Notes under the pieces: generated by a model
The model's input: the letters and a program-made list of their open reading frames with translations, nothing else
Told to the model about the DNA's origin: nothing
The model's database searches: none
Program-made: the position numbers and the translations under genes
Source of the DNA: Minisyncoccota bacterium
Lineage (GTDB): Bacteria; Patescibacteriota; Minisyncoccia; 2-02-FULL-40-12; GWA2-44-9
NCBI GenBank assembly: GCA_017992005.1
Contig: JAGOPO010000001.1
Location: 4,646-68,645 of the forward strand
Direction of reading: 5' to 3'
DNA: 64,000 nucleotides
Part shown: piece after piece, positions 1 through 21,672 of the stretch
How the letters are laid out: each line of letters starts with the position of its first letter
Position numbering within the stretch: the first letter of the stretch is position 1

Positions 1-464
1 AGAAGAAGTGGGTGGTTCTCTTTTTCTATCCGCGCGATTTTACCTTTGTATGCCCCACGGAGATCCGCGAGTTTGCTAAGTTGGAGGCGGAATTCAAGAA
101 GTGCGGATGCTCGATAGTGGGCGCGAGCACCGATAGCGAGCACAGTCACAAGGCTTGGTTTGAGCGCGATTTGCCCGAGGTTACCTATCCCATTCTTGCC
201 GATACCACACAGCAGGTGAGTCGTGACTACAATGTCCTGGGAGCAGATGGAGCAAGTCAACGGGGGACGTTCATCATCGACCCCGAGGGCGTGCTTCGCT
301 GGATGGTTGTCTCCGATAATTCAGTGGGACGCTCAGTGACTGAGACTGTGCGTGCGCTGCAGGCATTACAGACGGGGAATCTGTGCCCGATTGAGTGGGC
401 ACCAGGGGCTGCGTTTGTGGGGCCTGCGAAGCAAGCAAAAAAACCCGCCACCAAGAAGTCATAG
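1..464 (+). CDS. Peroxiredoxin (typical 2-Cys Prx/AhpC family), 5' end truncated by window start
   Basis: Translation ...KKWVVLFFYPRDFTFVCPTEI... carries the peroxidatic Cys motif FTFVCPTE; the reading frame continues upstream of position 12 to the window edge; stop at 464. Confidence 0.9.
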   Translation, partial: KKWVVLFFYPRDFTFVCPTEIREFAKLEAEFKKCGCSIVGASTDSEHSHKAWFERDLPEVTYPILADTTQQVSRDYNVLGADGASQRGTFIIDPEGVLRWMVVSDNSVGRSVTETVRALQALQTGNLCPIEWAPGAAFVGPAKQAKKPATKKS

Positions 465-497
465 TGAGACTCTGGACAATAGTAAATACTTGGGGTA

Positions 498-535
498 TAT
501 TCACCTCCTCGCTACACGAGGAGGTGAATAGTTTT
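498..535 (+). terminator. Perfect 14-bp inverted repeat (tattcacctcctcg-ctaca-cgaggaggtgaata) followed by TTTT; likely an intrinsic terminator after the peroxiredoxin gene. Its 3' arm is also a GAGGAGGTG Shine-Dalgarno for the next ORF.
   Basis: Stem 498-511/517-530 seen directly; T-run 532-535; TTG start of the next ORF at 534. Confidence 0.5.
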
Positions 536-896
536 GAAGCTTGATACATCGCACGTATCAACAACCAGTCAGTTGCGCAATATTCAGCGCATTCCGATCA
601 CATTTATTCCGGGGCTAGAGTATCCGTATGCTTCTGGAGTTCGTTGTGCTCTTTGCAGCAAGCCGTTGTCTCGACTCAATCCGCATATCGTCTGTTTTTC
701 TTGCATTCTTGAGGTGCGATCATCACAGTCTCAATCGCTCATAGAAGCTGCGCAGCATATTTTGCATATTCGGCGCCTGCCAGCTCATCTCACAGATGCT
801 CGTGAGCTTCGTCGGATGAATCATCGTATCGCACAGGCAACGCGTCGATGGCATCGTTTACGTGACCGACCACGATCCAACGAGGTACTCCGCTAG
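534..896 (+). CDS. Hypothetical small protein with two CxxC pairs (possible zinc ribbon)
   Basis: ORF with TTG start 7 nt after a GAGGAGGTG SD; CALC...CFSC motif; no recognisable family. Confidence 0.4.
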   Translation: MKLDTSHVSTTSQLRNIQRIPITFIPGLEYPYASGVRCALCSKPLSRLNPHIVCFSCILEVRSSQSQSLIEAAQHILHIRRLPAHLTDARELRRMNHRIAQATRRWHRLRDRPRSNEVLR

Positions 897-957
897 CTTT
901 AGCTGGCGGTTTTTTTATGAAAGCGTACACTGGAGTTGTAGAGAAATTCTCATTTCT

Positions 958-1884
958 ATGACATCAAACACAACCGCTCGCGATGTATTTATGTATTTAC
1001 TTTTGGTGATTGTTGTTGGTATGAGTGCGATGAATCTTGGTACGTTACTATTCCAGTATGTGAATATTTATGTTCCAGATTCTTCCTTGCAGCAATGCTT
1101 TGCGTCATCCTGTGTGCAAGCGATCCGTTGGGCGCTGGCGTCTCTAATAATTGTGTTTCCTGTGCTTCTTTGGGTCTGGAGATTCCTTCAACGGGATTGC
1201 ATCCAGTACCCAGAAAAACTTGATTCTCGGGTTCGAAGATGGATTCTGTATTTCTTATTGTTCGTGTCGGGAGTCGTTTTGATTGGCGATTTAGTTTCGC
1301 TCGTGTACAGCTGGCTACAAGGTGACTTCACGGTTCAGTTTGTCTTGAAGGTGCTCATCATCGCATACGTTGCAGGTTCGATTTTCTTCTACTTCCTTCG
1401 CGCGCTTAACCCGTCCAGCGGCGTTGGCTCAAAGATCGTTGGCTGGGTTGCCATCGGTGTGACTACCGTTACGCTCGTCGTGGGATTTATGTCATCGGGT
1501 TCGCCATTTCAGGCGAGATTAGAGCGTCTTGATAATCAACGCGTGCAGGATCTTCAAAATATTCAAAATCAAATTGTGTACTCGCACTGGTCCGCCAAGC
1601 AGTCGCTGCCGGGTACGTTGAGCGACCTGAACGATCCCATTAGTGGCTATGTTGTGCCGGTCGATCCACAGTCAAAAGTATCGTATGAATACACCAAGAA
1701 AGGGGATACTTCATTTGAGCTGTGTGCAGCGTTTGCGACTGAGCTACGCGTCGACACGAGCTTGAATCGAATCTCGTATCCTGTCGGAGCTAATTCCGCC
1801 GAAGGCAATTGGTTTCATGGCGTCGGTCGCACATGCTTTGAGCGTTCCATCGACACTCAGCTGTATCCACCGAAGACAAAGTAA
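958..1884 (+). CDS. Hypothetical integral membrane protein (multiple hydrophobic helices)
   Basis: Long ORF; the internal ATG at 958 (MTSNTTARDVFMYLLLVIVVG...) is chosen over the upstream TTG-type start at 862; several predicted TM segments; unknown family. Confidence 0.5.
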   Translation: MTSNTTARDVFMYLLLVIVVGMSAMNLGTLLFQYVNIYVPDSSLQQCFASSCVQAIRWALASLIIVFPVLLWVWRFLQRDCIQYPEKLDSRVRRWILYFLLFVSGVVLIGDLVSLVYSWLQGDFTVQFVLKVLIIAYVAGSIFFYFLRALNPSSGVGSKIVGWVAIGVTTVTLVVGFMSSGSPFQARLERLDNQRVQDLQNIQNQIVYSHWSAKQSLPGTLSDLNDPISGYVVPVDPQSKVSYEYTKKGDTSFELCAAFATELRVDTSLNRISYPVGANSAEGNWFHGVGRTCFERSIDTQLYPPKTK

Positions 1885-2781: not shown

Positions 2782-3561
2782 TTGTATTGCTCATGTAAAT
2801 CTGCTAGCGTAAGCGCCATGAAATTCAGACCGGCGTGGACCATAGCAGCCTCTGTGCTCGTAGTGACCGCTTCACTCTTCTCTATTCGCTATCTAGATCG
2901 TTTGCCGTCGGAACGATTGGCCGCACTTTTAGGTATTACGGTTACGGTGCGCGATATCAATCAGACGCCAATCCCGTCTTCTCAAGTTATTCCGGCCCAA
3001 GGTAATGAATCTGCGATACTTGGACTCGTTACAATTCAGACATATTCTGGCTCCGCGCTGATTCGCCAAGGAACTGGAACCGCTGTTTCGGTTGATGGAC
3101 TTGTGTTAACGCTAGCAAGTATCGCCCCTTATGGTTCCGGCTCGTATGTCTATCAGGTGGCTACGCCGCATGGTCAGGTCGTCCGCGCATATCGCGTAGC
3201 AAGCGATCGCCAGGCGGGCTTAGTGCTCCTCAAGGCGGATATTGGTGATCTTGATGCAGTATTGTTTGATGACGGAGCTCGGGGGCTCAATTCAGGCCAG
3301 GGGCTTGAGGCAGTATCATCTCGTATAGCGGTTTCGCAATTCGAGATTATGAGACTCCCCGTGTGGGTCGTATCAAATGTGCGTGATCATGAGATCACGC
3401 TATCGCTTGATCGTGCATACGGTCCATTATTTCATGGCGCGCGACTGATTGATGCTTCTCAGCGATCGGTCGGGATCATCCGGTATGGTGCACAACCAGT
3501 GCTCATATCTGCGGCAAGTCTGAATTCGTTTATTGAGTCGTATCTTGCTGGAGTTAAGTAA
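2782..3561 (+). CDS. Trypsin-like (S1C/HtrA-like) peptidase-fold protein with signal anchor; the catalytic His region appears substituted (possibly an inactive pseudo-protease)
   Basis: GTGTAVSVDGLVLT and LVLLKADIGDLDAV resemble S1C blocks, but no NAHV-type His motif is present; an AGAGGTG SD precedes the TTG at 2782; alternative ATG start at 2818 (MKFRPAWTIAASVLVV). Confidence 0.45.
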   Translation: MYCSCKSASVSAMKFRPAWTIAASVLVVTASLFSIRYLDRLPSERLAALLGITVTVRDINQTPIPSSQVIPAQGNESAILGLVTIQTYSGSALIRQGTGTAVSVDGLVLTLASIAPYGSGSYVYQVATPHGQVVRAYRVASDRQAGLVLLKADIGDLDAVLFDDGARGLNSGQGLEAVSSRIAVSQFEIMRLPVWVVSNVRDHEITLSLDRAYGPLFHGARLIDASQRSVGIIRYGAQPVLISAASLNSFIESYLAGVK

Positions 3562-4309: not shown

Positions 4310-5257
4310 ATGTCTCCCGCAAAGTCAGTACTTCTAGCGGTTGTAATTGCAGGCGTCGCGTACGGTGCCGCCACTGTCTTTGGCGGCGCCAGGCAATCAA
4401 GTGACAGTACTGGTGCCATCAGTGGCGCGCTGGTGACAGTTACCGTGTCACCTGGTGCCACGCAGGTGACACGTGGTGACAGGCGAGGTGTCACATCGGT
4501 GACACCTCGTAACGTCGCGGTGACACCATTGCTGTCACCAGCTGGCACTAGCGTGTCACCACTCGTTCCTCGCGTAAGCGTTGCAGTTTCGAATGCACCA
4601 AGTGCAACGCCCGCTCCTGTACTGTCCAGTTTGCCGAGTCCGATTGTTGCGAGGACTGCAACGCCCACTCCGGTGGTGCAGACGCCGACACCGGTTCCAA
4701 GTGCAACGGTTACACCTTCTCCAGCGCCGACTCCTGCGGCGCCAGCAAGCACTGCAGTGGTGATCAATGAGGTCGCTTGGGCTGGCACCGCAGCTAACGC
4801 GTCCGACGAATGGATCGAGCTCTTCAACTACGGGAGTAGCGCTATCGACCTGTCAGGGTGGGGGCTGTTTGAGGGCGCAACGCAAATCATTGAGCTCAAA
4901 GGAGTGATTGGTGCCGGAGAGTATTGGCTTATCGAGCGAACCGACGATTCAACCGTGTCTGATATAGCCGCAGATGTTATTGGTCCGTTTTCTGGGTCCG
5001 GCTTGAGTAATAGTGGTGAGGCACTCTCGTTGCGCACAGCGATGGGTGTATCCGTCGATATTGTTGATTGCGCCGCCGAATGGTTCAACGCTGGATTGGT
5101 CGCTCAAAAACAGACCATGGAGCGTAAAGATCCACGAACGAGTGGCTCAGAGGCAACCAACTGGGGCTCAAATTCGGGGGCGATCACGACCGGATTGGAT
5201 GCCAAATTCACTCCCATAGTGGGGACTCCAAAGTTCAAAAATAGCCTCGCGCTCTAA
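4310..5257 (+). CDS. Lamin tail domain (LTD)-containing secreted/anchored protein with a Pro/Thr/Val/Ser-rich linker
   Basis: N-terminal hydrophobic anchor, then PT/VT-rich linker, then LTD signature VVINEVAW...DEWIELFNYG...DLSGWGL. Confidence 0.75.
   Translation: MSPAKSVLLAVVIAGVAYGAATVFGGARQSSDSTGAISGALVTVTVSPGATQVTRGDRRGVTSVTPRNVAVTPLLSPAGTSVSPLVPRVSVAVSNAPSATPAPVLSSLPSPIVARTATPTPVVQTPTPVPSATVTPSPAPTPAAPASTAVVINEVAWAGTAANASDEWIELFNYGSSAIDLSGWGLFEGATQIIELKGVIGAGEYWLIERTDDSTVSDIAADVIGPFSGSGLSNSGEALSLRTAMGVSVDIVDCAAEWFNAGLVAQKQTMERKDPRTSGSEATNWGSNSGAITTGLDAKFTPIVGTPKFKNSLAL
4434..4560. repeat. Array of about 9 alternating GTGACAC / GTGTCAC heptamers (each the reverse complement of the other) inside the LTD gene linker
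   Basis: Direct reading: ggtgacag, gtgtcacc, ggtgacacg, ggtgacagg, gtgtcaca, ggtgacacc, ggtgacacc, tgtcacc, gtgtcacc; encodes a VT/VS-rich peptide with strictly biased codons. Confidence 0.6.
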
Positions 5258-5297
5258 AAGTAGTGGGAATTGACTTGGTTTATCCACAAAAATGCTA

Positions 5298-5325
5298 TTG
5301 TTGGCTTTCGGAGTTTCGCTATAAT
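5298..5325 (+). promoter_or_regulatory. Candidate promoter TTGTTG-16nt-TATAAT about 565 nt upstream of the large surface-protein gene (would give a long 5' UTR)
   Basis: Hexamers 5298-5303 and 5320-5325; no convincing ORF lies between this promoter and 5891. Confidence 0.35.
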
Positions 5326-5890
5326 GATTTTGTTACCACGGTTTCTGAGTCGGGCAGCGGTTCGCAGTTGGTGAGGAAAGTATTGACTTTTCTTGCCTAT
5401 CTGCTATCCTAGAGGTCACCGCTCCCATTGCGTATAACCGCGGTAAAAGTACCCTTCAAACCCTTGACAGGTCATCAAAAAAGCCATTTTGGCTTGATTT
5501 TGGTGCTTGAGCTTTCGATCTTTGTGGCTAGTGGCCCCAAAGATGGACAGCCCAGGAAAGAACGTTGAAAACAAAGGATAAGCAAGATCATACTGTTGCA
5601 AATGTTGCATGACCGAATATGGAAGCGAAAGAACCCTTTCCGTAGTCACCAGAACGGGTCTTGGTAGTTATTTCAGCGAGGAGTCCGATGCTCCTTGGTC
5701 GAAGTGGGAGTACTCGGAACCGTATACAGCAATGTGTGCGGCCTGCGTGTTCGAACAAGATCCAGTTGCTTCGTCGAAAGACGGAGTGACGCAAGCAGTG
5801 CAGTGCAGTTTAATACCCTCTTCCCCTCTCATTGCTCGTCCCCCAGTAGGGAGGCGATACGGTGGAGCGAGATGAGGTTCACCCTAGATA

Positions 5891-8800
5891 ATGTCTAATT
5901 CTATCAAGGGCTACGTCCGCACCGTTGCGGCAAGCCTGACGATGGCGTCTACGGTGCTCTCCTTGGCAGGCTTCGCAGCCTTCCCAGTTGCAGCATACGC
6001 AGTCGCTCCAGCAGATTTCGGACTCCGAGAAGGAGACGTGATCCGCGCCACTGGCGATGTCGATTTGTATATCGTCAATGATATGGGCTACAAGCGCTTG
6101 TTTGTAAACCCAGCAATCTTCAACCTCTACGGCCACCTCGGCTGGAGCAAGGTGAAGGAAGTTGCACCTTCCACCCGCGATGCGTTCGTGACCTCTGGTC
6201 TCTTCCGCGTTGATGGTGATGCAAAGGTCTATGGCTTGGACGTCGTGTCCGAGGATGTAGCAAACCTTCGCTGGGTCAACACAACCGGTGCACAGGCAGT
6301 TGTCGATGATGCGAACTTCTTCAAGAAGGTCTTCACCGTCAATGCTGCTGAAAAGGCTTTGTATGGAATGGGCGCAGACTACACGTCTGTTCTCCAGGTT
6401 CCAAACTACAGCCGTGGCACAACCGTTGCGACTGGTCCATTGAGCGCATCTTTGGCCTACTCCAACCCAGCATCCTCAACATTGATCGAAACCCAGTCCA
6501 TGGCGGACTTGGCACACTTCAGTGTTATGGGATCTGGTGCAGTCACCAAGCTCGTCCTCAAGAAGCTCGGTGTCGCAGGTGATTCTACCCTCAGCAATGT
6601 CTATCTCTTCGTAAATGGAGAGCGCAAGTCTGATGGATTCACGTTCGCAAGTGGAGAGCTTACGCTCAACAATGCAGCTGGATTCTTCACGGCTCCTGCG
6701 ACGGTTTCTATCCGTGGAAATATTGCGGATACTACTGCCGGACAGACGATTGGTGTCGGTTTGACGATGTTGAATGATTCAGTTGTGTCTGTGAATGGAA
6801 ACATCCACACGATTGCAACGAACCCATCTGACCTCGGTAGCGTTACCGTTGTTGCTCCAACGAGCGCAGGCGACGTTAATCCACAGAGCGACGTTAAAGT
6901 ATGGGAATCTGATCTTACTATCGGTGGCAATGATATGTACTTGAAGCGCTTGTCGCTTCGCTTGCTCGGTTCCTCGAGCGTCGCAGACTTCCGCAACTTC
7001 CGCCTCTTCGTTGATGGCACACAGGTTGCTACGTCCGCTGGCTTCGATGCAAACGAGTATGTGCACTTCTTGACCAACACGAAGATCACGACCAGTGCGG
7101 GAGCGGTTGTGAAAGTTGTCGCTGATATCGTCAGCGGTTCCACTCGAACATACCAGTTCCAGCTCAAGGGTGCCTACGATTTGGAAGTCATGGATGCTGA
7201 TTACAGCGTCAACGTGACCCCAGGAGGTACCTTCCCAGCGGCCCCATCCTCAGGCACGATCGGCGGAGCTTCAGTTACGTCCATCAAGGCAACCAACTCG
7301 CCATCCGGTGATGTTGTCGATGCTGCAGATGACGTCGTCTGGGCAACCTACACACTCACCACCTACGGTGAAGCTGTGAAGATCGATACACTTAGCTTCT
7401 ATGCATCGGTTTCTGACAGCAATGTTGGATCCCTTCGCGATGGTCGCGTGTTGATCAACGGTGTTCAGTACGGTAGCACCCAGAGCTTGCTTGAGACTGC
7501 TTCTACGTCCTTCACAGTCAACTACACTCTCGTTCCTGGTTCGCCAGCAACGGTTGAGGTCCGTGCAGATGCATACGATGCATCCAGCACAGAGGATCTT
7601 ACTTCAGGTGATGTTGTCTCCGTTGTTATGGACTTCGACTCCGGTAACGCCGAGGGCGTAAGCTCAGGTAACTCCGTGAACGTTCCTGGCTCCGATATCG
7701 AAGGTAACAATCGTTCGATTGTCACCGGCTCGATGACGTTGACCAAGAACAGCGGCTATGCAAACCAGACCGTCGTTCTTCCTCAGACCGCATTCAAAGT
7801 TGGTGAGTGGAATCTTGTTGGACCAAGCACCGAAGCGGTCAACTTGAACACATTCTCACTTGATGTCAATGAGGTCGTCGGCTCGACCTTCAACGAATCT
7901 GATCTTCAGGATTTGTACATTGTGTACGGATCTCAGACGACCACGATCAAGGGAACGGTCTCAGCTGATGGTCAGGACAACGAGTTCTCGGTTAGCAAGC
8001 AGCTTGCCGCATCCGAAACCTTGAACATCAAGGCGTATGCAACCTTGAAGTCCGGTAGCGTTACTGCGAATGACTCCTTCAAGACGGACCTCTCGATCAA
8101 CGGTACAACCGTTTCTTCGGGAACTTCCTTGAACGGAAATTCAACCAACTCCGATATCGATGGTCAGACCATTGCATACGGTGCTGGTTCCTTGACGCTT
8201 GCACTTGATGCAGACTCTCCTGTCGCCCGCATCGTTGCGGATGGCCAGACTGTTGATGCAGCAAAGTTCAAGCTCACTGCAGTCAACGACACCTACAAGC
8301 CAACTCGTCTTATCTTCGGATTGACGAACACAGCTGGTATCGATTCGGCAACCGTTACGGATGGCTCGACCACCGTCGCGATGTCGATCGGCGCAGCTTC
8401 AGCTTCTATCGATCTTAACTCAGCACAGCAGGAAGCCTTCAAGGTGACCGCTGGCTCGACAAAGGTCCTTACGGTGAAGTTGGCTATCGGTTCGATTGAA
8501 ACACCAAATGGTGCAGGTACTGGCTTGAGTCACGCCGTCACCTTCGATGTTTCTGAGAGTAAGGCAATGGCAGCTTCTTCTGGAACAGAGAGCACGTTCA
8601 CGTCGCTTTCCCAGACGAACAAGAGCGGCAACGCCTTGTATGCCTATGCTGCAATCCCAACCATCAGCCGTATTGCCCTCCCAAGCACTGTGCTCGCCAA
8701 TGGCACCACAACGCTTGCGAAGTGGTCAGTCAGCTCTGGCGGAACTGGAACGATCGGCTGGATCAAGAGCATCTTTACGGTGACTCCAAGCTCAGGCGTA

Positions 8801-9178
8801 TCCGTTTCCAGTCTCTCGGTATGGGATGCTGATTCCAACACCCAGATCACTGGTGGAATCTCAAGCTCTTCGAACGTAGTTACCTTCCTCGCAACCAATG
8901 AGCAGGAAATCAGTGGTGCGAAGAACTACTACCTCAAGGGTACTGTTGCAGGAACGGATGGTACTTCCGACAGTGTTGTGGTCACGTGGAACGCTGGTAG
9001 CACCGCATATGGCGCATCAGCTGCTTCTTCATCGGCCGCGACCGCTGGCGCAGGAACTGCATCGTTCGTCTGGACGGATCAGTCGCTCAAGTCGCCTCAC
9101 ACCGAGTCGACCGCAGACTGGAACAACGACTGGCTCGTCAAGAATCTCTCCTTGGATTCCTGGACACTCCAGAACTAA
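5891..9178 (+). CDS. Large secreted S/T/G/V-rich cell-surface protein (S-layer-like / Ig-like beta-sandwich repeats); candidate glycosylation substrate
   Basis: Signal peptide MSNSIKGYVRTVAASLTMASTVLSLAGFAAFPVAAYA; 1095 aa of low-complexity beta-rich composition with many D-S/T sites; long upstream region and a strong terminator downstream (architecture of highly expressed S-layer genes). Confidence 0.8.
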   Translation: MSNSIKGYVRTVAASLTMASTVLSLAGFAAFPVAAYAVAPADFGLREGDVIRATGDVDLYIVNDMGYKRLFVNPAIFNLYGHLGWSKVKEVAPSTRDAFVTSGLFRVDGDAKVYGLDVVSEDVANLRWVNTTGAQAVVDDANFFKKVFTVNAAEKALYGMGADYTSVLQVPNYSRGTTVATGPLSASLAYSNPASSTLIETQSMADLAHFSVMGSGAVTKLVLKKLGVAGDSTLSNVYLFVNGERKSDGFTFASGELTLNNAAGFFTAPATVSIRGNIADTTAGQTIGVGLTMLNDSVVSVNGNIHTIATNPSDLGSVTVVAPTSAGDVNPQSDVKVWESDLTIGGNDMYLKRLSLRLLGSSSVADFRNFRLFVDGTQVATSAGFDANEYVHFLTNTKITTSAGAVVKVVADIVSGSTRTYQFQLKGAYDLEVMDADYSVNVTPGGTFPAAPSSGTIGGASVTSIKATNSPSGDVVDAADDVVWATYTLTTYGEAVKIDTLSFYASVSDSNVGSLRDGRVLINGVQYGSTQSLLETASTSFTVNYTLVPGSPATVEVRADAYDASSTEDLTSGDVVSVVMDFDSGNAEGVSSGNSVNVPGSDIEGNNRSIVTGSMTLTKNSGYANQTVVLPQTAFKVGEWNLVGPSTEAVNLNTFSLDVNEVVGSTFNESDLQDLYIVYGSQTTTIKGTVSADGQDNEFSVSKQLAASETLNIKAYATLKSGSVTANDSFKTDLSINGTTVSSGTSLNGNSTNSDIDGQTIAYGAGSLTLALDADSPVARIVADGQTVDAAKFKLTAVNDTYKPTRLIFGLTNTAGIDSATVTDGSTTVAMSIGAASASIDLNSAQQEAFKVTAGSTKVLTVKLAIGSIETPNGAGTGLSHAVTFDVSESKAMAASSGTESTFTSLSQTNKSGNALYAYAAIPTISRIALPSTVLANGTTTLAKWSVSSGGTGTIGWIKSIFTVTPSSGVSVSSLSVWDADSNTQITGGISSSSNVVTFLATNEQEISGAKNYYLKGTVAGTDGTSDSVVVTWNAGSTAYGASAASSSAATAGAGTASFVWTDQSLKSPHTESTADWNNDWLVKNLSLDSWTLQN

Positions 9179-9208
9179 GCTGTTGGTTGCCTGATAGGTT
9201 AGAAGTTT

Positions 9209-9240
9209 CCAAAACCCCCCGAAAGGGGGGTTTTGGTTTG
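9209..9240 (+). terminator. Strong rho-independent terminator (12-bp GC stem ccaaaacccccc/ggggggttttgg with GAAA loop, then T-run)
   Basis: Seen directly, 31 nt after the surface-protein stop. Confidence 0.85.
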
Positions 9241-9272
9241 AACTAATCGTACATATTGCTAGTATTAATAAT

Positions 9273-10973
9273 ATGAGAAATATGACCAAGGTATTATTGG
9301 CGCTGCTTGTGATTGTGGGGGGAATTGTATATTTCCCAAATCTACGCAGTGCATTTTATGAAGATGATATTCAGGTGATAGTGGAGAATCCCGGGATTCA
9401 GCAGTTCACACGTACGAGCGTTGCTAATTTATTTTTGCAGCCTATGACTGATGGTGATTCGGGGACTGCATTACTGTATCGACCACTAGCAATGATGACG
9501 TTTGCGGCCAATGTTCAATTGAGTGAAGCAAATACATTTACCTATCACGTCGTGAACAATCTTCTCCATATTTGTAATGCACTGTTGTTGTTCTTTTTAG
9601 TGCGCACACTTATGAGGGGGGTGAATCTTGATTTGCCCGCAGCACACTTCAATATTCTTGCTGGTCTTTCAACAATTCTTTGGCTTATTCACCCGCTGCA
9701 AAGTGAGGCCGTTTCGTCCATTTCGGGAAGAGCTGATTTACTTGCATTTTTGTTTATTCAAATTGGAATGCTTCTACTGCTTCGCGGCACTGTCTGGCAA
9801 TATCGAGTTGGTGCGGGAGGTGCGATGGTTCTTGCTCTGATGTCGCATGAGTCTGCTATTTTATTTCCTGTCTATGTTGTATCCGCCCTGATAGCTACTC
9901 GTGCCAAAGACGAATCACTGTCCTCATCGGTGCGTGCTGTTGCAAGAGTGACATGGCCGTTCGTTGCGCTTGCGCTTCTTTACGGACTATTTCGTTCGAC
10001 AGTATTGAAGCTGCCTTCGGAATTTTTTGGGTATACACTTAGTCATGCAGCGGCGTTTTTTGAGTATATCCGCTTAGTGGTGGTGCCAACGGCGCTTCAT
10101 CCGGAGAGAACGATACCATTGGCAGCTAGTAGCGCTGTGTGGGCGGGGATGGCGTTGCTTGTGCTTTTTGCAGCACTGATTGTCGTCGCATGGAGGCGTG
10201 GCTACCGGAGTATAATCGTTCCTGCAGGTTTCATCGCGCTTCCTCTTTTACTCGTCTTTGGATTCTCAGCCGGCTCTAATGCGCGGATGCTTGAGCATTG
10301 GATGTATGTCCCATTGGCGGGGTTGAGTATAGTGATTGGTGGTATGGGTGGTGCGCTATATTACATCGTGAGGCAGAAATCACGCATCGCTGCAATGCTT
10401 TTGTTTGTCGCGGTGTGCGCGGGGATTGGCGTCTATGGAGTTATGGCGTTTCGGCAAAATAAGCTATGGAGTCAATCAGAGCAGCTGCTTCTACGTATCG
10501 CGCACTTCGAGCCACAGAACGTGAGCTCAAGAATCGCGCTTGCGATATATTACGCGCAAGAGGAGAGCTTTGATCTTGTTGAGCAATATCTTCTGGATGC
10601 TGCCTTGTTGGATCCGTTTGATGCGAATATTCCGATGATGCTTGGCAATCTCAAGAGAAATACGGGGGCATATCCGAAGGCAATTGAATATTATGAGCAA
10701 GCAATTGCGCTAAATCCTGAGCTCGGATTTCCATACCGTAATCTCGCTGGAATATATATTCAGCAGGGAGACAAGGTGAAAGCTCTTCCGTTGCTCTTAA
10801 AACTTGAAGAAATTGATCCTTCAGATGTCGCCGCGCATTTCGCTGTTGCGCAGCTCTATTTTACAGCAGGCAAGAAATCGGAAGCACTCAAAGCGCTTGA
10901 GCGTGGTATTCCGTATCTTCAATCGCCAGATGCAGCCGCTGCTTATGAGCAGCTCCTCAGAAAACTGCAGTAG
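9273..10973 (+). CDS. TMTC/PMT-like GT-C family protein O-glycosyl(mannosyl)transferase homolog: polytopic N-terminal domain (DUF1736-like) plus C-terminal TPR repeats
   Basis: First-loop motif FYEDDIQVIVENP and YRPLAMMTFAANVQL are typical of TMTC/DUF1736 proteins; about 9 TM helices; C-terminal TPR-like repeats (AIEYYEQAIALNPE..., AHFAVAQLYFTAGK...). Confidence 0.7.
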   Translation: MRNMTKVLLALLVIVGGIVYFPNLRSAFYEDDIQVIVENPGIQQFTRTSVANLFLQPMTDGDSGTALLYRPLAMMTFAANVQLSEANTFTYHVVNNLLHICNALLLFFLVRTLMRGVNLDLPAAHFNILAGLSTILWLIHPLQSEAVSSISGRADLLAFLFIQIGMLLLLRGTVWQYRVGAGGAMVLALMSHESAILFPVYVVSALIATRAKDESLSSSVRAVARVTWPFVALALLYGLFRSTVLKLPSEFFGYTLSHAAAFFEYIRLVVVPTALHPERTIPLAASSAVWAGMALLVLFAALIVVAWRRGYRSIIVPAGFIALPLLLVFGFSAGSNARMLEHWMYVPLAGLSIVIGGMGGALYYIVRQKSRIAAMLLFVAVCAGIGVYGVMAFRQNKLWSQSEQLLLRIAHFEPQNVSSRIALAIYYAQEESFDLVEQYLLDAALLDPFDANIPMMLGNLKRNTGAYPKAIEYYEQAIALNPELGFPYRNLAGIYIQQGDKVKALPLLLKLEEIDPSDVAAHFAVAQLYFTAGKKSEALKALERGIPYLQSPDAAAAYEQLLRKLQ

Positions 10974-10974: not shown

Positions 10975-12147
10975 CTATTTCAAGAGATTAGCATACTGCG
11001 CGATCATTGATTGCGTGGTGTACGTATCGAGGGCTGTGTGGCTAGCGTTCACCGCGAGGGCGGCTTTCAATTCTTGGTTTGCGGTAAGTCGGATCACAGC
11101 GCGTGCGATATCTTGCGGGTTGCCAGGATCACAGAGAATCCCATTTTTCCCGTCATCGATAATCTCCGAAACGGCTCCAACGCGAGTCGTTATCACTGGC
11201 ACGTTGGCCGCCATAGCCTCCAATAGGGCCCAGGGGAAACCTTCTTTGACAGATGGGAGTACGAATAGGTCGAATGCCTTGAGGTACCTCCATGCGTCTG
11301 GGAGGCGACCAATGAGAAAAAAACGACGCTGTATATTAAGGGCCTCTATCGTTCGTTGAAGCTCCTGTCGAAGTGGGCCATCTCCGACGACAACGTATTG
11401 AATGCTGTCCGGGGTTGCAGCAGCTGCTTCAATAAGCGTGGCGATGCCTTTTGTTGCGTATAAATTGGCAATGGTGCCCACGAGCTGCGAGGATGACGAC
11501 AGGTGACCTTGAGGGAGGTGCTTTTGGAGGGCGGCACGCGCTTCATCCCGAGTGAGAAATGGCAAATCAGTATCGATGCCGTTGTAGATACGGATAATCT
11601 GTTTTCTGGGTTTGATGCCAAGCGCGATTGCTTGCTTGAGATCGTGGGTGTTGTTGACGACGATGACATCCTTCCAAGATGCCGAGAGTTTTTCCATGAC
11701 AATGTAAAGCCTCTTTTTCCATGCGGGGATGGGGTCATTAAATGACCAGCCACCAATTCGGTATATGACCTTGAGCTGAGCGTGTTGTTTGCGTAGTCCG
11801 TGCGCTGCTCGAGAGCCAACAAATCCCGCCTTGCTCGACATGCAGAGCACGATATCCGGTCGAAAAGCACGCATCATCGTGCGCAGTTCACTCACAGCGA
11901 GCGCGTCGTGGAGGGGAGAGATCGAGCGAACAAGATGACGAGCCACCGCATGAGTGACCGATGCAGGAAGGAGACGAGCTAGGTCGTTACCCGTATGCTG
12001 GCCCCAGACGACATGAATGGTGTGCTTTGATGGATTGAGGTGTAGCGCTAGTTGCGCGAGAAATCGCTGGGCGCCACCTTCTTCGCCCTGCGTGATAACA
12101 CAGAATATTCTACGCTTTGTCGTGGTTGTAGTTGCTTCGGAAGGCAT
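10975..12147 (-). CDS. Glycosyltransferase family 4 (GT-B)
   Basis: C-terminal EGFPWALLEAMAANVPVITTRVGAVSEIIDDGKNGIL motif (E-x7-E GT4 signature). Confidence 0.85.
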   Translation of the reverse strand: MPSEATTTTTKRRIFCVITQGEEGGAQRFLAQLALHLNPSKHTIHVVWGQHTGNDLARLLPASVTHAVARHLVRSISPLHDALAVSELRTMMRAFRPDIVLCMSSKAGFVGSRAAHGLRKQHAQLKVIYRIGGWSFNDPIPAWKKRLYIVMEKLSASWKDVIVVNNTHDLKQAIALGIKPRKQIIRIYNGIDTDLPFLTRDEARAALQKHLPQGHLSSSSQLVGTIANLYATKGIATLIEAAAATPDSIQYVVVGDGPLRQELQRTIEALNIQRRFFLIGRLPDAWRYLKAFDLFVLPSVKEGFPWALLEAMAANVPVITTRVGAVSEIIDDGKNGILCDPGNPQDIARAVIRLTANQELKAALAVNASHTALDTYTTQSMIAQYANLLK

Positions 12148-12205
12148 AGCGGAGTACGCTCAGTGATGCTAGAATACCACAACATTCCAATTGATATAGA
12201 GCTCT

Positions 12206-13312
12206 ATGCGACCACGTATTCTCTTATTCTCGACAGCATATCTTCCACACATTGGAGGCAGTGAGTTGGCAATTTACCACATCGCGCGGTTTCTTCCCGA
12301 CTATGATATCGATCTGGTAACCGGAAGACTCGATAGCTCCGATGCGACAATGGAGTACATAAATCGAGTTCGTGTTTTCCGTGCCGGCGGAAGATGGTCG
12401 CGGCTTTCACTCTTGGTGCCAAAATTTCTGATGCCGATTGCGATGGCTATCACTGCGTATCGACTAACCAAAAAGTATCGATATAGCGTATTGCATGCGT
12501 ACCAGGCATCGCAGGCAGCAGTAGCGGCCGCTATCGTGAATGCATTTTGTCCAAGCATACCTCTGATCATCACACTGCAAGAGGGTAAGATTCTCAAGCA
12601 GCAACCGTGGCTTACGCAAACAATACGCGCATTCATCTTGCGTCGTGCGCGTATGATTACCGCGATTAGCAATTATCTAGCCGACTATGCAGGAAGCGTT
12701 TCTCGTGCGCCCGTTGTGGTTATTCCCAACGGAGTTGACGTGGGCGCGATGTATCACCCGGAAATTGTACGCGATGCTCATCGTATTGTGACCGTTTCGC
12801 GTTTAGTGGAAAAAAATAATGTCGAAGGCATTTTGCGGGCGATGGTTCATGTGCGGGAGCGCTTTCCGTTGGCGAAGCTACTTATTGCGGGCGATGGCCC
12901 CATGAAAGCGAGCCTGATGGGCCTTTCGTCGGATCTCGGCATCGCTGGTAGTGTTGAATTTCGAGGATTTGTGGCTCATAAAAATTTGGGAGAGATATTG
13001 AGCTCTGCTTCGATCTTTGCGCGCCCGTCCTTGAGCGAGGGGCTAGGATCAGCATTTCTCGAAGCGATGGCGGCGCACACGGCTATTGTCGCATCTTCAG
13101 TGGGTGGTATTCCTGATATCGTAGAAGATGGTGTCACGGGGCTGCTGTGCGATCCGCGTAATCCACACGATATTGCGCGTGCAATCATGACGCTCTTAGA
13201 GCAAGAGCAAACTCGCACCGAAATCGTTGAACGAGCAGATGCATTTGTGAAAAAATATGACTGGTCATCCATCGCATGGCGCATGTCAAAACTCTACGCT
13301 TCAATCGCATGA
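12206..13312 (+). CDS. Glycosyltransferase family 4
   Basis: EGLGSAFLEAMAAHTAIVASSVGGIPDIVEDGVTGLL motif. Confidence 0.85.
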   Translation: MRPRILLFSTAYLPHIGGSELAIYHIARFLPDYDIDLVTGRLDSSDATMEYINRVRVFRAGGRWSRLSLLVPKFLMPIAMAITAYRLTKKYRYSVLHAYQASQAAVAAAIVNAFCPSIPLIITLQEGKILKQQPWLTQTIRAFILRRARMITAISNYLADYAGSVSRAPVVVIPNGVDVGAMYHPEIVRDAHRIVTVSRLVEKNNVEGILRAMVHVRERFPLAKLLIAGDGPMKASLMGLSSDLGIAGSVEFRGFVAHKNLGEILSSASIFARPSLSEGLGSAFLEAMAAHTAIVASSVGGIPDIVEDGVTGLLCDPRNPHDIARAIMTLLEQEQTRTEIVERADAFVKKYDWSSIAWRMSKLYASIA

Positions 13313-14475
13313 AATCGCTTTGTATCGCAACCGGAATATTTGCTCCAGATATCGGAGGCCCAGCATCGTATGCAGCCTCGCTAGCAGCGCGATTATCAGA
13401 TGACGGCGTTCGTGTTGAGATTATTACGTATTCCAGTGTCCGAAGATTTTCTGGTGATAATCAATCGGGGTATCGTATTCATAGAATCTGGTCGGGTTGG
13501 CCGTGGGGGATTCGGCATGGCATCTACTTTCTGCGAAGTCTCATTGTAGTGAGTCGATGCGATGCTGTTCTTGCGCTCAATGCTGTCTCGGCTGGCGTTC
13601 CTGCGGCTCGTGCTGCGCGACTCTTCGGAAAGCCATATATTGTGCGTATTGCAGGAGACTACGCCTGGGAAATCGCTGTGCAAACTGCCGCGACATACCT
13701 CATGATTAATGAGTTCCAAAAATCCCCGAAGCAAGGGCGGATTCGGCGACTCCATGAGGCTCAAAAATCCATGGTGAGTCGAGCGAATGCCGTCATTGTG
13801 CCTTCTGAGTATCTCGCTGGTATCGTGCGCTCGTGGGGCGCCCCTGATGAGCGTGTTCACGTTATCTACAATGGAGTAGATCTTCCAGGCTATGAAGGGT
13901 CCAAAGAAGATGCGCGTCGCACAATTGGCGTGTCAGGCACCATCATTGTATCAGCGGGTCGTCTCGTGCCATGGAAGGGATTTCGCATGCTCATAAAAAT
14001 TATGCCTCAATTATCGCAGGTGAATCAATTCTTTCGCTTGGTTATCGTAGGTGACGGGCCAGATTTGGCAATGCTTCAATCGGTTATTCGAAATCTTGGA
14101 TTAGAGCGAAAGGTGACACTTGCGGGGCGAAAGTCGTCACGTGAGCTGGCGGTATATCTCGCGGCAGCAGATATGTTCGTGCTCAATACGGGCTATGAAG
14201 GATTTTCCCATCAAGTACTCGAGGCGATGCAAGCTGGCGTTCCCGTTATCACGACGACATCAGGGGGTAATCCGGAAGTCATAACGCAAGGGGAAAATGG
14301 CTTGATGGTCAGATACAATGATGAATTCAATCTCGTCGAAGCAATCAAGGCTCTTTCGAAGCAGGCAGAACTTCGCGAGCAATTTATTATCCAAGGGAAA
14401 AAGTCGGTTGAAGTCTTTAGTATCGAAAAGATGTACCAACAAACGAAACAGCTGCTCGAACGACTTTCGCCATGA
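13309..14475 (+). CDS. Glycosyltransferase family 4
   Basis: ATGA start/stop overlap with the upstream gene; MKSLCIATGIFAPDIGGPASY N-terminus; EGFSHQVLEAMQAGVPVITTTSGGNPEVI motif. Confidence 0.8.
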   Translation: MKSLCIATGIFAPDIGGPASYAASLAARLSDDGVRVEIITYSSVRRFSGDNQSGYRIHRIWSGWPWGIRHGIYFLRSLIVVSRCDAVLALNAVSAGVPAARAARLFGKPYIVRIAGDYAWEIAVQTAATYLMINEFQKSPKQGRIRRLHEAQKSMVSRANAVIVPSEYLAGIVRSWGAPDERVHVIYNGVDLPGYEGSKEDARRTIGVSGTIIVSAGRLVPWKGFRMLIKIMPQLSQVNQFFRLVIVGDGPDLAMLQSVIRNLGLERKVTLAGRKSSRELAVYLAAADMFVLNTGYEGFSHQVLEAMQAGVPVITTTSGGNPEVITQGENGLMVRYNDEFNLVEAIKALSKQAELREQFIIQGKKSVEVFSIEKMYQQTKQLLERLSP

Positions 14476-15557
14476 AGTTACTCATGATTAGCGGTGACCG
14501 CACGTTAGCATCCGGAAAGCAGGGTGCATTCTATAATACGCTGGAGGAGCTCCACACGCATTTCGAGCGCATCGATATCATCTGTCCTCGCGTATCGGTG
14601 CAAAGGTACAACATGGTTGTATTTGGCAATGTATATGTCCATCCATCGCCATTGCCGCTTGTACTGCAACCTTTGTGGATTTGGTTCAATGGTAAGCAAT
14701 TAATTCATAGACTTCAGCACGAGCTTATGACGGTGCATGAGTATCCACCCTTCTACAATGGCTTGGGGGCTCGACTAGTGAACTACGCGACAAAGGTGCC
14801 GTATGTCTTGGAGCTATTTCATATACCAGGTGTGCCACGGGCGTCAGGGCTCAAAGAGCACTTCTATCGGTGGCTCACGAGGCAGATTATCTCGTGGGAC
14901 GCGGCTCCTGCGCGTGTAGTGCGGGTTATGAATCAACGACAGGTGCCCGCATTCCTGCAAGACGCGGGGGTGCCGCCCCAGAAGATCCGTACTATTTCTG
15001 CTGTGTACGTTGATACAAATGTATTCACGTTTCATGATAAGCCCAAGCTCTACGATGTGGCATTTGTAGGCCGCATGGCATCCAATAAGGGGCTCAATTT
15101 GTATCTTGATGTAATCGAGAAATTAGGATGTGTTGGTGTGGCTGTAGGCGATGGGCCGCTGCTTTCATGGGCGTGTCGCCAGGCAAAACGGCGTGGATTA
15201 AAAATTCATTTTCCTGGATTCGCCGTCGACAGTACCGAGGTGGCTCGATATCTCAATGAGTCGCGAGTGCTTCTTATGCCATCGTTGAATGAAGGGGGCC
15301 CTCGTATTGTGGTGGAGTCCCTCGCATGCGGAACTCCCGTAGTGGCGACACCCGTTGGTATTGTTGAAGATGTGCTTCCACCAGAGTGTATCGAGGAATG
15401 GAATACTGCTGACTTAGCCGATAAGGTTCGTAATATTTTGGAAGATGCAACGCTCTATCGGCGATTGAGTGAGCAAGGCATCGCAACCGCTCAACAATTT
15501 GAGCGCACGAAAGCAATCGCGCATCTCGCTGATACTTTAAAATCGCTGGTGTCATGA
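14472..15557 (+). CDS. Glycosyltransferase family 4-like
   Basis: LMPSLNEGGPRIVVESLACGTPVVATPVGIVEDVL; 4-nt overlap with the upstream gene. Confidence 0.75.
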   Translation: MKLLMISGDRTLASGKQGAFYNTLEELHTHFERIDIICPRVSVQRYNMVVFGNVYVHPSPLPLVLQPLWIWFNGKQLIHRLQHELMTVHEYPPFYNGLGARLVNYATKVPYVLELFHIPGVPRASGLKEHFYRWLTRQIISWDAAPARVVRVMNQRQVPAFLQDAGVPPQKIRTISAVYVDTNVFTFHDKPKLYDVAFVGRMASNKGLNLYLDVIEKLGCVGVAVGDGPLLSWACRQAKRRGLKIHFPGFAVDSTEVARYLNESRVLLMPSLNEGGPRIVVESLACGTPVVATPVGIVEDVLPPECIEEWNTADLADKVRNILEDATLYRRLSEQGIATAQQFERTKAIAHLADTLKSLVS

Positions 15558-16588
15558 AGCGCTTACTTATTATTACCCAAAAAGTCGATGAACAAGATGA
15601 CTTGCTAGGTTTTTTTGTTGCCTGGATACGCGAATTTTCTCGTCTGTGGGATTCAGTGACCGTGATTACACTTGGCGTTGGTGTTCATACATTGCCTTCG
15701 AATGTCCGGATTCTATCGCTCGGCAAGGAGCGAGGCTCTAGCAAGTTCTCTCGAGCGATTTCTTTTGGGGCACACTGCATACGTGAAATTCCACGACACG
15801 ATGTAGTTTTTGCCCATATGTCTCCTGTTTTCGCTATAGCAGCCGCCCCACTAACGAAGCTGTTTCAAAAAAAACTTATCCTTTGGTACCTTCACCGTTC
15901 TGCTACGATAAAGCTCAAGCTCGCAATCGCTCTCGCGGACAAGCTCGTCACCGCCGATACGCAGAGCCTAACGATTCGGAATTCCAAGATAGTTGCCGTG
16001 GGGCACGGCATAGACGTTCAGCGTTTTTCGAATCCACAACGAGTAGCACCAGCGAATAGACCGATACGTATTTTGTCGGTAGGGCGCGTCTCGCCAATTA
16101 AGGGCTTTGAGACTCTATTGCGTGCTGTGCATGTTTTGCGAAAGAACGGATTCGTCTGTGAGATTCGTATTGTTGGCGCTCCGGTAATGAAGGGGGATGC
16201 AGAATACGCAGGCTCACTACACGCTCTCATTCAAAATCTGGAAATATCGGACATAGTAACTATGATCGGATTTGTTCCCTACGCCGATATGCCGAAGCAA
16301 TACGCGTGGGCTGATGTTGTTGCTGGGTGTACGCCACCTGGGGGAATAGATAAGGTTCTTTTAGAGGCTATGGCAGCTGGGTGTATCGTGATGACATCTA
16401 ATGGCGTAATGGGGGCGCATCTGACTCCCTACGCAGATCAGCTAGTCTTTCCGGCCGGTGACAGTGAACGACTAGCGCAACTTCTTAATTCATTGCATGA
16501 ATACGACGAGCTCTCGCGTGCGATGGTGGTTGCCGCACAGCGCTATACGGTGGAATCAGTAGTCAAAAATATATCAGCACTTGTTTAG
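15554..16588 (+). CDS. Glycosyltransferase family 4-like
   Basis: GT-B C-terminal block GGIDKVLLEAMAAGCIVMTSNGV; overlaps the upstream stop. Confidence 0.7.
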   Translation: MKRLLIITQKVDEQDDLLGFFVAWIREFSRLWDSVTVITLGVGVHTLPSNVRILSLGKERGSSKFSRAISFGAHCIREIPRHDVVFAHMSPVFAIAAAPLTKLFQKKLILWYLHRSATIKLKLAIALADKLVTADTQSLTIRNSKIVAVGHGIDVQRFSNPQRVAPANRPIRILSVGRVSPIKGFETLLRAVHVLRKNGFVCEIRIVGAPVMKGDAEYAGSLHALIQNLEISDIVTMIGFVPYADMPKQYAWADVVAGCTPPGGIDKVLLEAMAAGCIVMTSNGVMGAHLTPYADQLVFPAGDSERLAQLLNSLHEYDELSRAMVVAAQRYTVESVVKNISALV

Positions 16589-16596
16589 AAAATTAT

Positions 16597-16650
16597 AAAT
16601 CCTCGCATACTATTTTATACTCATGATAAATAGTATTCATGCGAGGATTT
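16597..16650. terminator. Long imperfect palindrome (aaatcctcgcat...atgcgaggattt); likely a bidirectional terminator between the + strand GT operon and a - strand gene
   Basis: 12-bp perfect outer arms with a partially self-complementary AT-rich interior, seen directly. Confidence 0.55.
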
Positions 16651-16711
16651 TATGTATAGATTGCGCCATGCCATTGCACGCGTAATCTCAACCGACTACG
16701 AACGACTATGT

Positions 16712-17323: not shown

Positions 17324-17369
17324 GAGCCCTCCTTGGACTCTGAAGCCTCGTGATTGAGACTTATATTAT

Positions 17370-17398
17370 ATTATACCAAATTGGCAGATAGTCGTCAA
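17370..17398 (-). promoter_or_regulatory. Canonical sigma70 promoter TTGACG-17nt-TATAAT on the minus strand driving ORF 16712..17323
   Basis: Minus-strand -35 = plus 17393-17398, -10 = plus 17370-17375. Confidence 0.55.
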
Positions 17399-21662: not shown

Positions 21663-21672
21663 GTCAATTGTT

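Follow-up and report, generated by a model that had tools for sequence, protein, structure and literature searches.

Does a membrane enzyme encoded directly behind a serine/threonine-rich surface protein in a member of the Patescibacteria glycosylate that protein? The question is raised by a 64,000-nucleotide stretch of DNA from a Minisyncoccota bacterium (GenBank assembly GCA_017992005.1, contig JAGOPO010000001.1, positions 4,646 to 68,645 of the forward strand), here called the window and numbered from its first nucleotide. An initial annotation had proposed that it encodes a dedicated enzyme-substrate pair for direct protein O-glycosylation: a surface protein and, immediately downstream, a glycosyltransferase (GT) of the GT-C superfamily that resembles TMTC proteins and ends in tetratricopeptide repeats (TPR). 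The two genes lie on the same strand, with coordinates exactly as first annotated (Table 1) and a spacer of 94 bp between them. Metazoan TMTC1-4 are O-mannosyltransferases of cadherins and belong to the GT-C/PMT clan; that full-length prokaryotic homologues exist has already been noted, and no more than that (PMC7801869). Bacterial TMTC homologues make up a very large family to which no substrate has been assigned, and the envelope, S-layer and host-attachment biology of the organisms that host this locus is almost unknown. The locus provides a concrete pairing of TMTC-like enzymes with a defined surface-protein family. As described below, the association is real and non-random, and it suggests a TMTC-like enzyme that glycosylates cell-surface proteins.

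Results

The enzyme is of the TMTC type

The enzyme carries only the database label 'tetratricopeptide repeat protein', and its membrane part matches no Pfam or NCBIfam family (Pfam to E 10), the TPR match (Pfam, 1.3e-11) in the last ~165 residues being the only one. Its AlphaFold2 model (pLDDT 92.7) comprises 11 transmembrane (TM) helices followed by TPR hairpins at residues 402-565. The membrane part has the multi-pass fold by which the GT-C superfamily is defined: fold comparison gave scores of 17.7 with AglB, 17.4 with ALG12, 17.2 with STT3B, 17.0 with Pmt4, 16.8 with Pmt2, 15.2 with AftB and 14.8 with AftA. Searching PDB sequences with the whole enzyme returned TPR matches only, and a profile of the TM part alone returned none; no TMTC structure was found among the PDB sequences.

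Relationship to TMTC proteins was measured by comparing a profile of bacterial TM domains with the published alignment of TMTC1-4 N-terminal domains (PMC7801869, supplement). The bacterial profile matches all eight animal TMTCs (8/8; human, zebrafish and fly TMTC1-4) with 188-245 bits over positions 8-394 of 395, and the domain of the window enzyme alone scores 35-59 bits against TMTC1-4. A GT-C enzyme with TPR, homologous to TMTC1-4 over its full membrane domain, is thus present where the initial annotation had placed it. Since basic residues precede TM1, its N-terminus is taken to lie inside, and the sidedness of the remainder follows by inference. The gene at 9273-10973 encodes a TMTC-type GT-C, with a predicted topology in which the N-terminus is cytoplasmic, the loop bearing the acidic DD motif faces outward and the TPR lies outside the membrane.

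The motifs M1 to M7, as defined in PMC7801869, can be followed along the domain through D31 D32, Y69 R70 P71, H140 P141..E145, R153-x-D155, H192 E193, Y265-x6-P272, H276-P-E278-R279 and E341 H342..Y345. Both motifs named by the initial annotation are in place, F28-Y-E-D31-D32 in loop 1 directly after TM1 and Y69-R70-P71-L72 downstream of it, and the conservation of the acidic loop, which it had proposed as a check, is high: D31 is invariant and D32 is found in 55/57 homologues. M1 is thus kept (FYEDD, against FVFDD in TMTC). In M2 (LLYRPL against HKSYRPL) the YRP is kept, and the SHKS part of SHKSYRP is gone. The HPxxxEAV element with M3 reads HPLQSEAVSSISGRADLL in the enzyme and HPIHTEAVTGVVGRAELL in TMTC, R153-x-D155 being kept. 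M4, defined as KE(T/Q)xxT, reads SHESAIL against CKEQGIT; it retains E193 and has His192 in place of a Lys proposed to contact the donor phosphate in TMTC (PMC7801869); this position is K in 48/57 of the wider family and R in the consensus of the candidate phyla radiation (CPR) clade. M5 (LHPERT against LCCDWT) has E278 for Asp, the DW having become ER. M7, the ERxxY motif of the TM9-TM10 loop, reads LEHWMYVPLAG against AERVLYVPSMG; its Glu and Tyr persist as E341 and Y345, and His342 takes the place of Arg, as in most bacteria: among 57 homologues this position is His in 41 and Arg in 14. The DUF1736 loop is ~25-30 residues shorter than in TMTC, its 'DNPA' half being deleted, and because of this deletion the enzyme gives no match to Pfam TMTC_DUF1736 (PF08409) up to E 10. 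Of the initial annotation's check for a GT-C fold with TMTC/DUF1736 homology, then, fold and TMTC1-4 homology came out positive and the DUF1736 match did not appear.

The altered residues are not randomly distributed. Each of 14 CPR sequences carries H276, R279, E341, H342, W343 and Y345. The substituted residues being fixed in the clade, and the M7 His being the majority form in bacteria, we read them as marking a clade-specific active-site variant rather than decay, and on sequence grounds this argues for a functional enzyme. Among 19 members of the wider family, 5/19 match Pfam TMTC_DUF1736 and 5/19 match PMT_2. The TM domain has homologues in 26,993 cluster representatives (50% identity) at E <=1e-3, and in only 6 at <=1e-30: the family is very large, and the window enzyme sits on a sparse, divergent branch. 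We regard it as a divergent TMTC-like enzyme, not as a TMTC orthologue, because the DUF1736 and M5 signatures are not reproduced and two donor-contact residues differ. A classical PMT was also considered and rejected, since the enzyme has no MIR domain and no Pfam match to MIR, PMT or PMT_2, and resembles Pmt2 and Pmt4 at the level of fold only.

The surface protein belongs to a Patescibacteria-wide family

The protein encoded upstream begins with a Sec signal peptide of the AxA type (residues 1-37, ending ...AYA before VAP), contains no Cys, and consists of Ser and Thr to 23.6%, against roughly 9-13% in most other open reading frames (ORFs) of the window. It has no Pfam match. In its AlphaFold2 model (pLDDT 82) an alpha/beta N-terminal module precedes ~seven beta-sandwich domains; the C-terminal tail is conserved (VWTD...H...DW..D.LVK). 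Foldseek retrieved generic immunoglobulin (Ig)-like arrays only: MG domains of complement and alpha2-macroglobulin, integrin legs, CFA/I pilins, and the S-layer protein SbsB. The description of it as a Ser/Thr-rich, secreted Ig-like protein therefore stands, and only 'giant' overstates a length of 1095 residues.

Full-length relatives of ~1080-1170 residues, 36-53% identical, occur throughout the Patescibacteria, under the source labels Paceibacteria, Yanofskybacteria, Curtissbacteria, Doudnabacteria and 'Saccharimonadales' (the last on metagenome-assembled genomes so labelled). Ser and Thr amount to 21-27% of each and are spread throughout; at 47 positions one or the other is present in >=85% of members. 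The N-terminal module belongs to no Pfam family, and a search for its homologues returned mostly fragments; in the model it resembles two tandem small beta-alpha repeats. It is common to the paralogues of the surface protein, and in other lineages PG_binding_1 stands in its place, a module swap resembling the anchor-domain swaps of Firmicute S-layer proteins.

Groundwater CPR cells have an S-layer and no outer membrane by cryogenic transmission electron microscopy, the protein concerned not having been identified (bioRxiv 10.1101/2020.05.14.094862). The window protein shows several attributes of such proteins (Sec signal peptide, absence of Cys, beta-sandwich array, swappable N-terminal module) and is probably the S-layer or major envelope protein of a monoderm bacterium; these features make the family a reasonable candidate for the CPR S-layer protein.

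Enzyme and surface family are linked across related loci

Two sets of loci were compiled, 80 from GTDB genomes anchored on relatives of the surface protein (12-sequence alignment) and 80 from metagenomes anchored on relatives of the enzyme, and all their ORFs were scored with local hidden Markov models. Among the 36 genome loci with >=5 kb on both flanks, 25 have a TMTC-like gene at <=8 kb: 4/9 of those with full-length surface orthologues, 13/15 of those with paralogues of ~1200-1260 residues, which have mainly the N-terminal ~430 residues in common with the window protein, and 8/12 of those with short or partial N-terminal-domain proteins. Approached from the enzyme, the link is tighter: a surface-family ORF is present in 27/31 non-redundant metagenome loci of >=12 kb, and lies upstream in 21/22 loci with >=8 kb before the first TMTC-like gene. 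Every TMTC-like ORF has the orientation of the surface-family gene (192/192). The co-occurrence that the initial annotation had expected in CPR is therefore found, with adjacency far beyond chance.

Gene order is equally persistent. The closest relative of the enzyme (52% identity) lies in the same succession, surface gene, enzyme, minus-strand GT4, and its best GTDB match (34%) directly follows a surface ortholog of 46% identity. The common order is o259, o190, the Lamin-Tail-Domain (LTD) protein, the large surface protein, 0-2 short N-terminal-domain proteins and 0-3 TMTC-like genes, followed in some loci by a gene for a Wzy_C protein with TPR (Wzy_C-TPR) and then by GT4(-), GT4(+), GT2, GT4 and GT4. 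Chance adjacency was rejected, since co-oriented synteny is kept at 25-50% protein identity; such conservation argues for a functional unit rather than an inherited accident. A locus conserved across the Patescibacteria thus couples a TMTC-like gene to an exported surface family and to genes of glycan synthesis. Pilin genes were not found beside TMTC-like genes in any of the mapped loci.

Some loci contain up to three or four TMTC-like genes in tandem (L045, L065, L068, L094, L114, L157 and others). Identity between tandem copies is ~30% for the membrane domain and ~25% for the TPR; the copies are ancient paralogues, which suggests different donor or acceptor specificities. In relatives lacking the enzyme, TPR-only ORFs occupy the slot after the surface gene (L081:13265-14525, L010:14851-15243, L164:14142-14876, L165:14258-14950), those of L081 coding for a 190-residue protein and a 126-residue protein with one TM helix. 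They are either decayed remnants of TMTC-like genes or TPR proteins that partner the surface protein in their own right. The short paralogues (L061:7395-8684, L064:7431-8678 and similar) consist of the N-terminal module and a C-terminal bacterial SH3 domain (SH3_3). The PG_binding_1-type genes (loci P0148, P0180 and P0183; L164, L165) lie in an FtsK/RecA-side neighbourhood with no glycan island, and are followed by genes for a short PG_binding_1 protein and a small TPR protein.

The glycan island and other neighbours

Table 1. Genes, domains and sequence elements of the window.
Feature	Position	Strand	Basis or remark
'o259', secreted, weakly trypsin-like	2782-3561	+	Pfam Trypsin_2 E 5.7e-4, under curated cut-off
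'o190', 190 aa	3570-4142	+	conserved upstream neighbour
Secreted Lamin-Tail-Domain protein	4310-5257	+	Pfam LTD 3.6e-13; directly upstream of surface gene
Surface protein gene	5891-9178	+	1095 aa ORF
Surface protein, N-terminal alpha/beta module	aa ~41-175 (6011-6415)	+	AlphaFold2 model
Surface protein, ~seven beta-sandwich domains	aa ~181-1040	+	AlphaFold2 model
Terminator-like GC hairpin CCCCCCGAAAGGGGGG, then T run TTTTGGTTT	9215-9230	+	match to consensus only
TMTC-like enzyme gene	9273-10973	+	566 aa ORF
GT-C membrane domain, 11 TM helices	aa 1-400 (9273-10472)	+	N-terminal part of enzyme
Extracytoplasmic TPR domain, ~5 repeats	aa ~401-566 (10473-10973)	+	C-terminal part of enzyme
GT4 block: ~nine GT4-type glycosyltransferases, first on minus strand, and FkbM-type methyltransferases	10975-23610	mixed	Pfam
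GT2	24498-25226	+	Pfam
Methyltransferase	25214-26014	+	Pfam
GtrA-family protein	26014-26421	+	Pfam
DPM1/ArnC-like GT2	26418-27179	+	Pfam
Two paralogous multi-pass membrane proteins, ~565 and 616 aa	29276-30973, 30939-32789	+	hydropathy, motif
Wzx-like flippase	44660-45982	-	flanks Wzy_C-TPR gene
Wzx-like flippase	46000-47337	+	flanks Wzy_C-TPR gene
Wzy_C membrane protein with C-terminal TPR	47334-49613	+	Pfam Wzy_C 6.4e-11, above cut-off, and TPR
Initiating polyprenyl phosphoglycosyltransferase	49610-50977	-	TIGR03025 5e-109

Downstream of the enzyme lies a long glycan island (Table 1). Its first part, the block beginning GT4(-) GT4(+) directly after the TMTC-like slot, is kept in the gene-order maps of related loci. 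The GT2 and GtrA genes (24498-27179) are candidates for making and flipping a polyprenyl-phosphate monosaccharide donor. The best NCBIfam matches of the second GT2 are the Und-P 4-deoxy-4-formamido-L-arabinose transferase (3e-18) and a dolichyl-P hexose transferase (3e-17), both far below their cut-offs; its homologues occur in 11/80 and 18/80 related loci and, since they recur inside the GT4 block of many of these, supply of polyprenyl-phosphate sugar appears to be a regular feature of the locus.

Directly after a sub-cluster of GT2, GtrA, GT2, GNAT and DegT genes come two paralogous membrane proteins, each with an acidic first-loop motif (RLVDDDLYYYARMREVFDG and LVNDSEGEYLSRVREVLDG) and neither with a Pfam or NCBIfam match; hhalign of the other large membrane proteins of the window against the TMTC-like profile was negative. 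To judge by their sequences the two look like an unclassified ArnT-like GT-C family, and could be alternative users of polyprenyl-phosphate sugar, the GT2/GtrA proteins' own GT-C partners.

The Wzy_C-TPR protein, which lies further on, is a candidate either for a second glycosylase of the surface protein or for a glycopolymer ligase. Homologues of it adjoin TMTC-like genes in 11/80 and 14/80 loci, and in many related CPR loci they immediately follow the TMTC-like genes, with the GT4 block coming next; two different TPR-bearing membrane enzymes of glycosyl transfer are thus tied to the same surface-protein locus. The island also holds, at 37118-43978, genes for a nonulosonic acid of the sialic/legionaminic type (NeuB synthase, CMP-sugar cytidylyltransferase, phosphatase-like and short-chain dehydrogenase-like proteins), together with a B12-binding radical SAM enzyme and methyltransferases. 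The sugar repertoire is elaborate for a bacterium of reduced genome.

Upstream of the surface gene, homologues of o259 were found in 15/80 genome loci, those of o190 (no match in a Pfam scan) at the same position in 23/80, and those of the LTD protein in 27/80; a DUF5671 gene and a gene for a secreted FKBP isomerase, farther upstream than these three, are also kept in L081. The surface gene itself is preceded by an unusually long intergenic region (5258-5890, 633 bp), which may be an extended leader or promoter belonging to a strongly expressed gene. No Rfam match was found in it, and Rfam and tRNA scans of the entire window returned nothing. An 88-residue ORF within it (5609-5875) was rejected as a gene, being without homologues in 160 related loci. 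Genes for SecA, SecD and SecF lie just past the glycan island (53172-55913, 60851-63091), bringing surface protein, modification genes and Sec machinery together in one 64-kb stretch.

Discussion

The best reading of the locus, to which we assign a probability of about one half, is that the TMTC-like enzyme directly O-glycosylates surface proteins. It draws on the homology to TMTC1-4 and on the precedent set by other enzymes that join a GT-C domain to TPR: all the characterized examples that we found (TMTC1-4, TMEM260 and TfpW) are protein O-glycosyltransferases. The DPM1/ArnC-like GT2 would make a polyprenyl-phosphate sugar donor, and the GtrA-family protein would help to flip it. At the outer face of the membrane the enzyme would take one sugar from this donor and attach it to hydroxyl groups of Ser/Thr in the upstream-encoded surface protein and in the paralogues of that protein, the acceptor being selected by the TPR domain and probably being modified while it emerges unfolded from Sec; TMTC1-4, TMEM260 and TfpW operate in this manner. 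The modification would be an optional, lineage-variable surface decoration, possibly made beside en-bloc glycosylation by the Wzy_C-TPR enzyme. As acceptor the surface protein is plausible: it is exported by Sec and rich in beta-sandwich domains, and both its Ser/Thr content (21-27% family-wide) and the 47 conserved Ser/Thr positions are shared by its relatives.

A wider proposition, put forward tentatively and as something possible, is that TMTC-type O-glycosylation of Ig-like surface proteins is an ancient prokaryotic system, in which one to four TMTC-like enzymes are dedicated to the Patescibacteria S-layer family and the N-terminal module serves as a docking or recognition tag for their TPR domains.

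Several observations weigh against direct glycosylation of the surface protein. The initial annotation had named absence of the enzyme gene from loci that retain the surface gene as telling against a pair; the outcome mostly favours one, the pairing being conserved over very divergent Patescibacteria, but the enzyme is gone from 5/9 full-length ortholog loci, where no TMTC-like gene is found within 8 kb. In the closest relative on a long contig, surface gene (50% identity) and GT4 block persist, but only two small TPR-only ORFs fill the enzyme slot, with no GT-C domain anywhere in 23 kb. The enzyme is therefore facultative, optional and lineage-variable, and 'dedicated enzyme-substrate pair' goes beyond the evidence, the more so as the Wzy_C-TPR enzyme is a second candidate: this enzyme, with the full Wzx-type pathway of the island, could glycosylate the surface protein instead. 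Homologues of the PG_binding_1 type are just as rich in Ser/Thr, yet have neither a TMTC-like gene nor a GT4/glycan cluster within 10 kb, and TMTC-like genes also flank the short proteins composed of N-terminal domain and SH3_3, in which the Ser/Thr-rich body is missing. From these two kinds of loci it appears that TMTC-like genes go with the N-terminal domain and with the glycan locus rather than with a high Ser/Thr content, and what they are linked to may be the N-terminal module or a wall polymer bound by it. The GT2 pair and GtrA are encoded in the island as first annotated, but 13.5-16 kb downstream of the enzyme, in an amino-sugar sub-cluster (GNAT, DegT) and beside the two other candidate GT-C-like proteins. 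Between surface gene and enzyme gene stands the terminator-like hairpin. In the enzyme itself, H192 replaces K, E278 replaces D and H342 replaces R at positions proposed to contact donor phosphate or metal, and the shortened DUF1736 loop goes with a missing PF08409 match. Finally, glycan, donor and acceptor are all inferred.

The link with the N-terminal module is what lends substance to the main rival, in our view a doubtful one, that the enzyme acts on a cell-wall glycopolymer. The N-terminal module would anchor the surface proteins to a secondary cell-wall polymer built and decorated by the island, and the TMTC-like GT-C would add polyprenyl-phosphate-linked sugars to this polymer, as ArnT, Emb/Aft and YfhO-type enzymes do. 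It would account both for the presence of TMTC-like genes around the short SH3_3 proteins and for the loss of enzyme and glycan cluster where PG_binding_1, a known wall-binding module, replaces the N-terminal one; the Firmicutes offer a precedent, with swappable anchor modules and S-layer genes beside genes of polymer synthesis (bioRxiv 10.1101/2025.04.02.646754). Wall binding by the N-terminal domain is however putative, and in the short proteins SH3_3 could be the actual anchor. Proteins are what is glycosylated by TMTC1-4, full-length relatives of the enzyme, and by its architectural analogues TMEM260 and TfpW, whose TPR domains, like those of TMTC1-4, bind proteins, whereas we found no characterized GT-C enzyme with TPR that acts on a polymer.

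Direct modification by the TMTC-like enzyme must also be set against en-bloc glycosylation of the surface protein by the Wzy_C-TPR enzyme, with an undecaprenyl-diphosphate oligosaccharide that the GT4 block would assemble and Wzx would flip, after the model of S-layer O-glycosylation in Geobacillus, Paenibacillus or Tannerella; the TMTC-like enzyme would then decorate the glycan or modify other exported proteins such as pilins. We consider this unlikely. The necessary components are at hand, Wzy_C and TPR having been confirmed and two Wzx-like flippases and the initiating phosphoglycosyltransferase lying alongside, the Wzy_C-TPR homologues are placed between TMTC-like genes and GT4 block in many related loci, and the GT4 block still follows the surface gene where TMTC-like genes are missing. 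But it is just as common for Wzy_C proteins to be O-antigen or polymer ligases or polymerases, such that the domain alone gives no function; the absence of pilin genes from the vicinity of TMTC-like genes speaks against the pilin variant; and the retention of one to three ancient TMTC-like paralogues, ~30% identical, between surface and glycan genes would go unexplained.

That the protein, its GT-C domain degenerate, mainly helps to export or assemble the surface layer, as a TPR scaffold or chaperone anchored in the membrane, is very improbable. Small TPR-only ORFs do hold the same slot in the GT-C-less loci L010, L081, L164 and L165, and the enzyme has substitutions at three motif residues and a shortened DUF1736 loop. 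But these ORFs may be mere remnants of decayed TMTC-like genes, and DD, RP, HP..E, RxD, E193, E278 and E341..Y345 show little or no variation, in the clade as in the wider family; fixation of the substituted residues likewise points to selection on an active site.

The readings differ in what they would mean. If the pairing of TMTC-like enzyme and surface protein is true, it offers a prokaryotic model of a pathway, TMTC/cadherin O-mannosylation, that has been implicated in human disease and for which there is as yet no structure. Were the ancient-system proposition to hold, the protein of the CPR S-layer would have been identified, bacterial TMTC homologues would have their first natural substrates, and TMTC-type O-glycosylation would be no metazoan invention. 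Action on a glycopolymer would make this the first known GT-C enzyme with TPR to work on such a substrate. The analysis also nominates an S-layer protein for the Patescibacteria, along with a 'surface glycoprotein locus' that can be used in annotating many CPR genomes.

Comparison with known systems

The window enzyme shares with TMTC1-4 its 11 TM helices, an N-terminus inside, TPR on the non-cytoplasmic side, and the DD, YRP, HPxxxEAV with RxD, M4 Glu, M5 acidic residue and M7 E..Y..P..G elements; the presumed acceptor is likewise an exported protein of Ig-like beta-sandwich domains. It differs in being a bacterial enzyme of the cytoplasmic membrane, whose donor would be an undecaprenyl- or polyprenyl-phosphate sugar and not dolichyl-phosphate mannose, in its shortened DUF1736 loop and its K to H (M4), DW to ER (M5) and R to H (M7) replacements, and in having only ~5 TPR repeats; its activity and substrate are predicted.

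The closest bacterial precedent is, by analogy of architecture and gene order, TfpW of Pseudomonas aeruginosa group IV, an O-arabinofuranosyltransferase of pilin that joins GT-C to TPR. It is an inner-membrane protein with 11 predicted TM helices, a periplasmic DDx motif, a periplasmic C-terminal TPR and a Y-x6-P-F-x7-P motif in a late loop; it uses a polyprenyl-phosphate monosaccharide donor, polymerizes D-Araf as well, and is encoded, co-oriented, directly downstream of its substrate gene pilA (bioRxiv 10.1101/2020.04.19.049825). The initial annotation, in calling bacterial homologues essentially uncharacterized, had overlooked this enzyme. Going by its description, TfpW resembles the window enzyme in domain architecture, in the DD motif, in having a counterpart of the invariant Y265-x6-P272, and in following the gene of a candidate substrate. 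Where TfpW modifies a type IV pilin, the window enzyme has as its neighbour an Ig-like-domain protein of ~1100 residues. TMEM260, a protein-specific enzyme which couples a GT-C core to luminal TPR, O-mannosylates Ser/Thr of Ig-like IPT domains in the extended polypeptide (bioRxiv 10.64898/2026.03.17.711096). The likeness to the window enzyme, again going by description, is in the coupling of GT-C core and TPR, and TMEM260 has a Rossmann-like luminal domain in addition. From the PMT/POMT enzymes (GT39), actinobacterial Pmt included, the window enzyme differs in having TPR and no MIR, and DD rather than DE.

At the level of the locus, the nearest likeness is to the slg loci of Geobacillus, Paenibacillus and Tannerella, where a major surface-protein gene also lies beside a glycan island with a Wzy_C-type transferase, Wzx and an initiating phosphoglycosyltransferase. 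To our knowledge these loci use only the Wzy_C-type oligosaccharyltransferase, and we know of no TMTC-type GT-C described in a locus of the slg type, literature searches for one being negative too. The searches returned no description of a CPR S-layer protein, of CPR protein glycosylation or of a characterized bacterial TMTC homologue, TfpW and general statements apart, nor of a Patescibacteria surface locus combining TMTC-like enzymes with a Wzy_C-TPR/GT4/GT2 block. The gene logic of a GT-C enzyme with TPR encoded after its substrate is already known from TfpW; what appears to be new here is a conserved surface locus of the Patescibacteria that joins one or more TMTC-like enzymes to an S-layer-candidate family and a Wzy_C-TPR/GT4/GT2 block.

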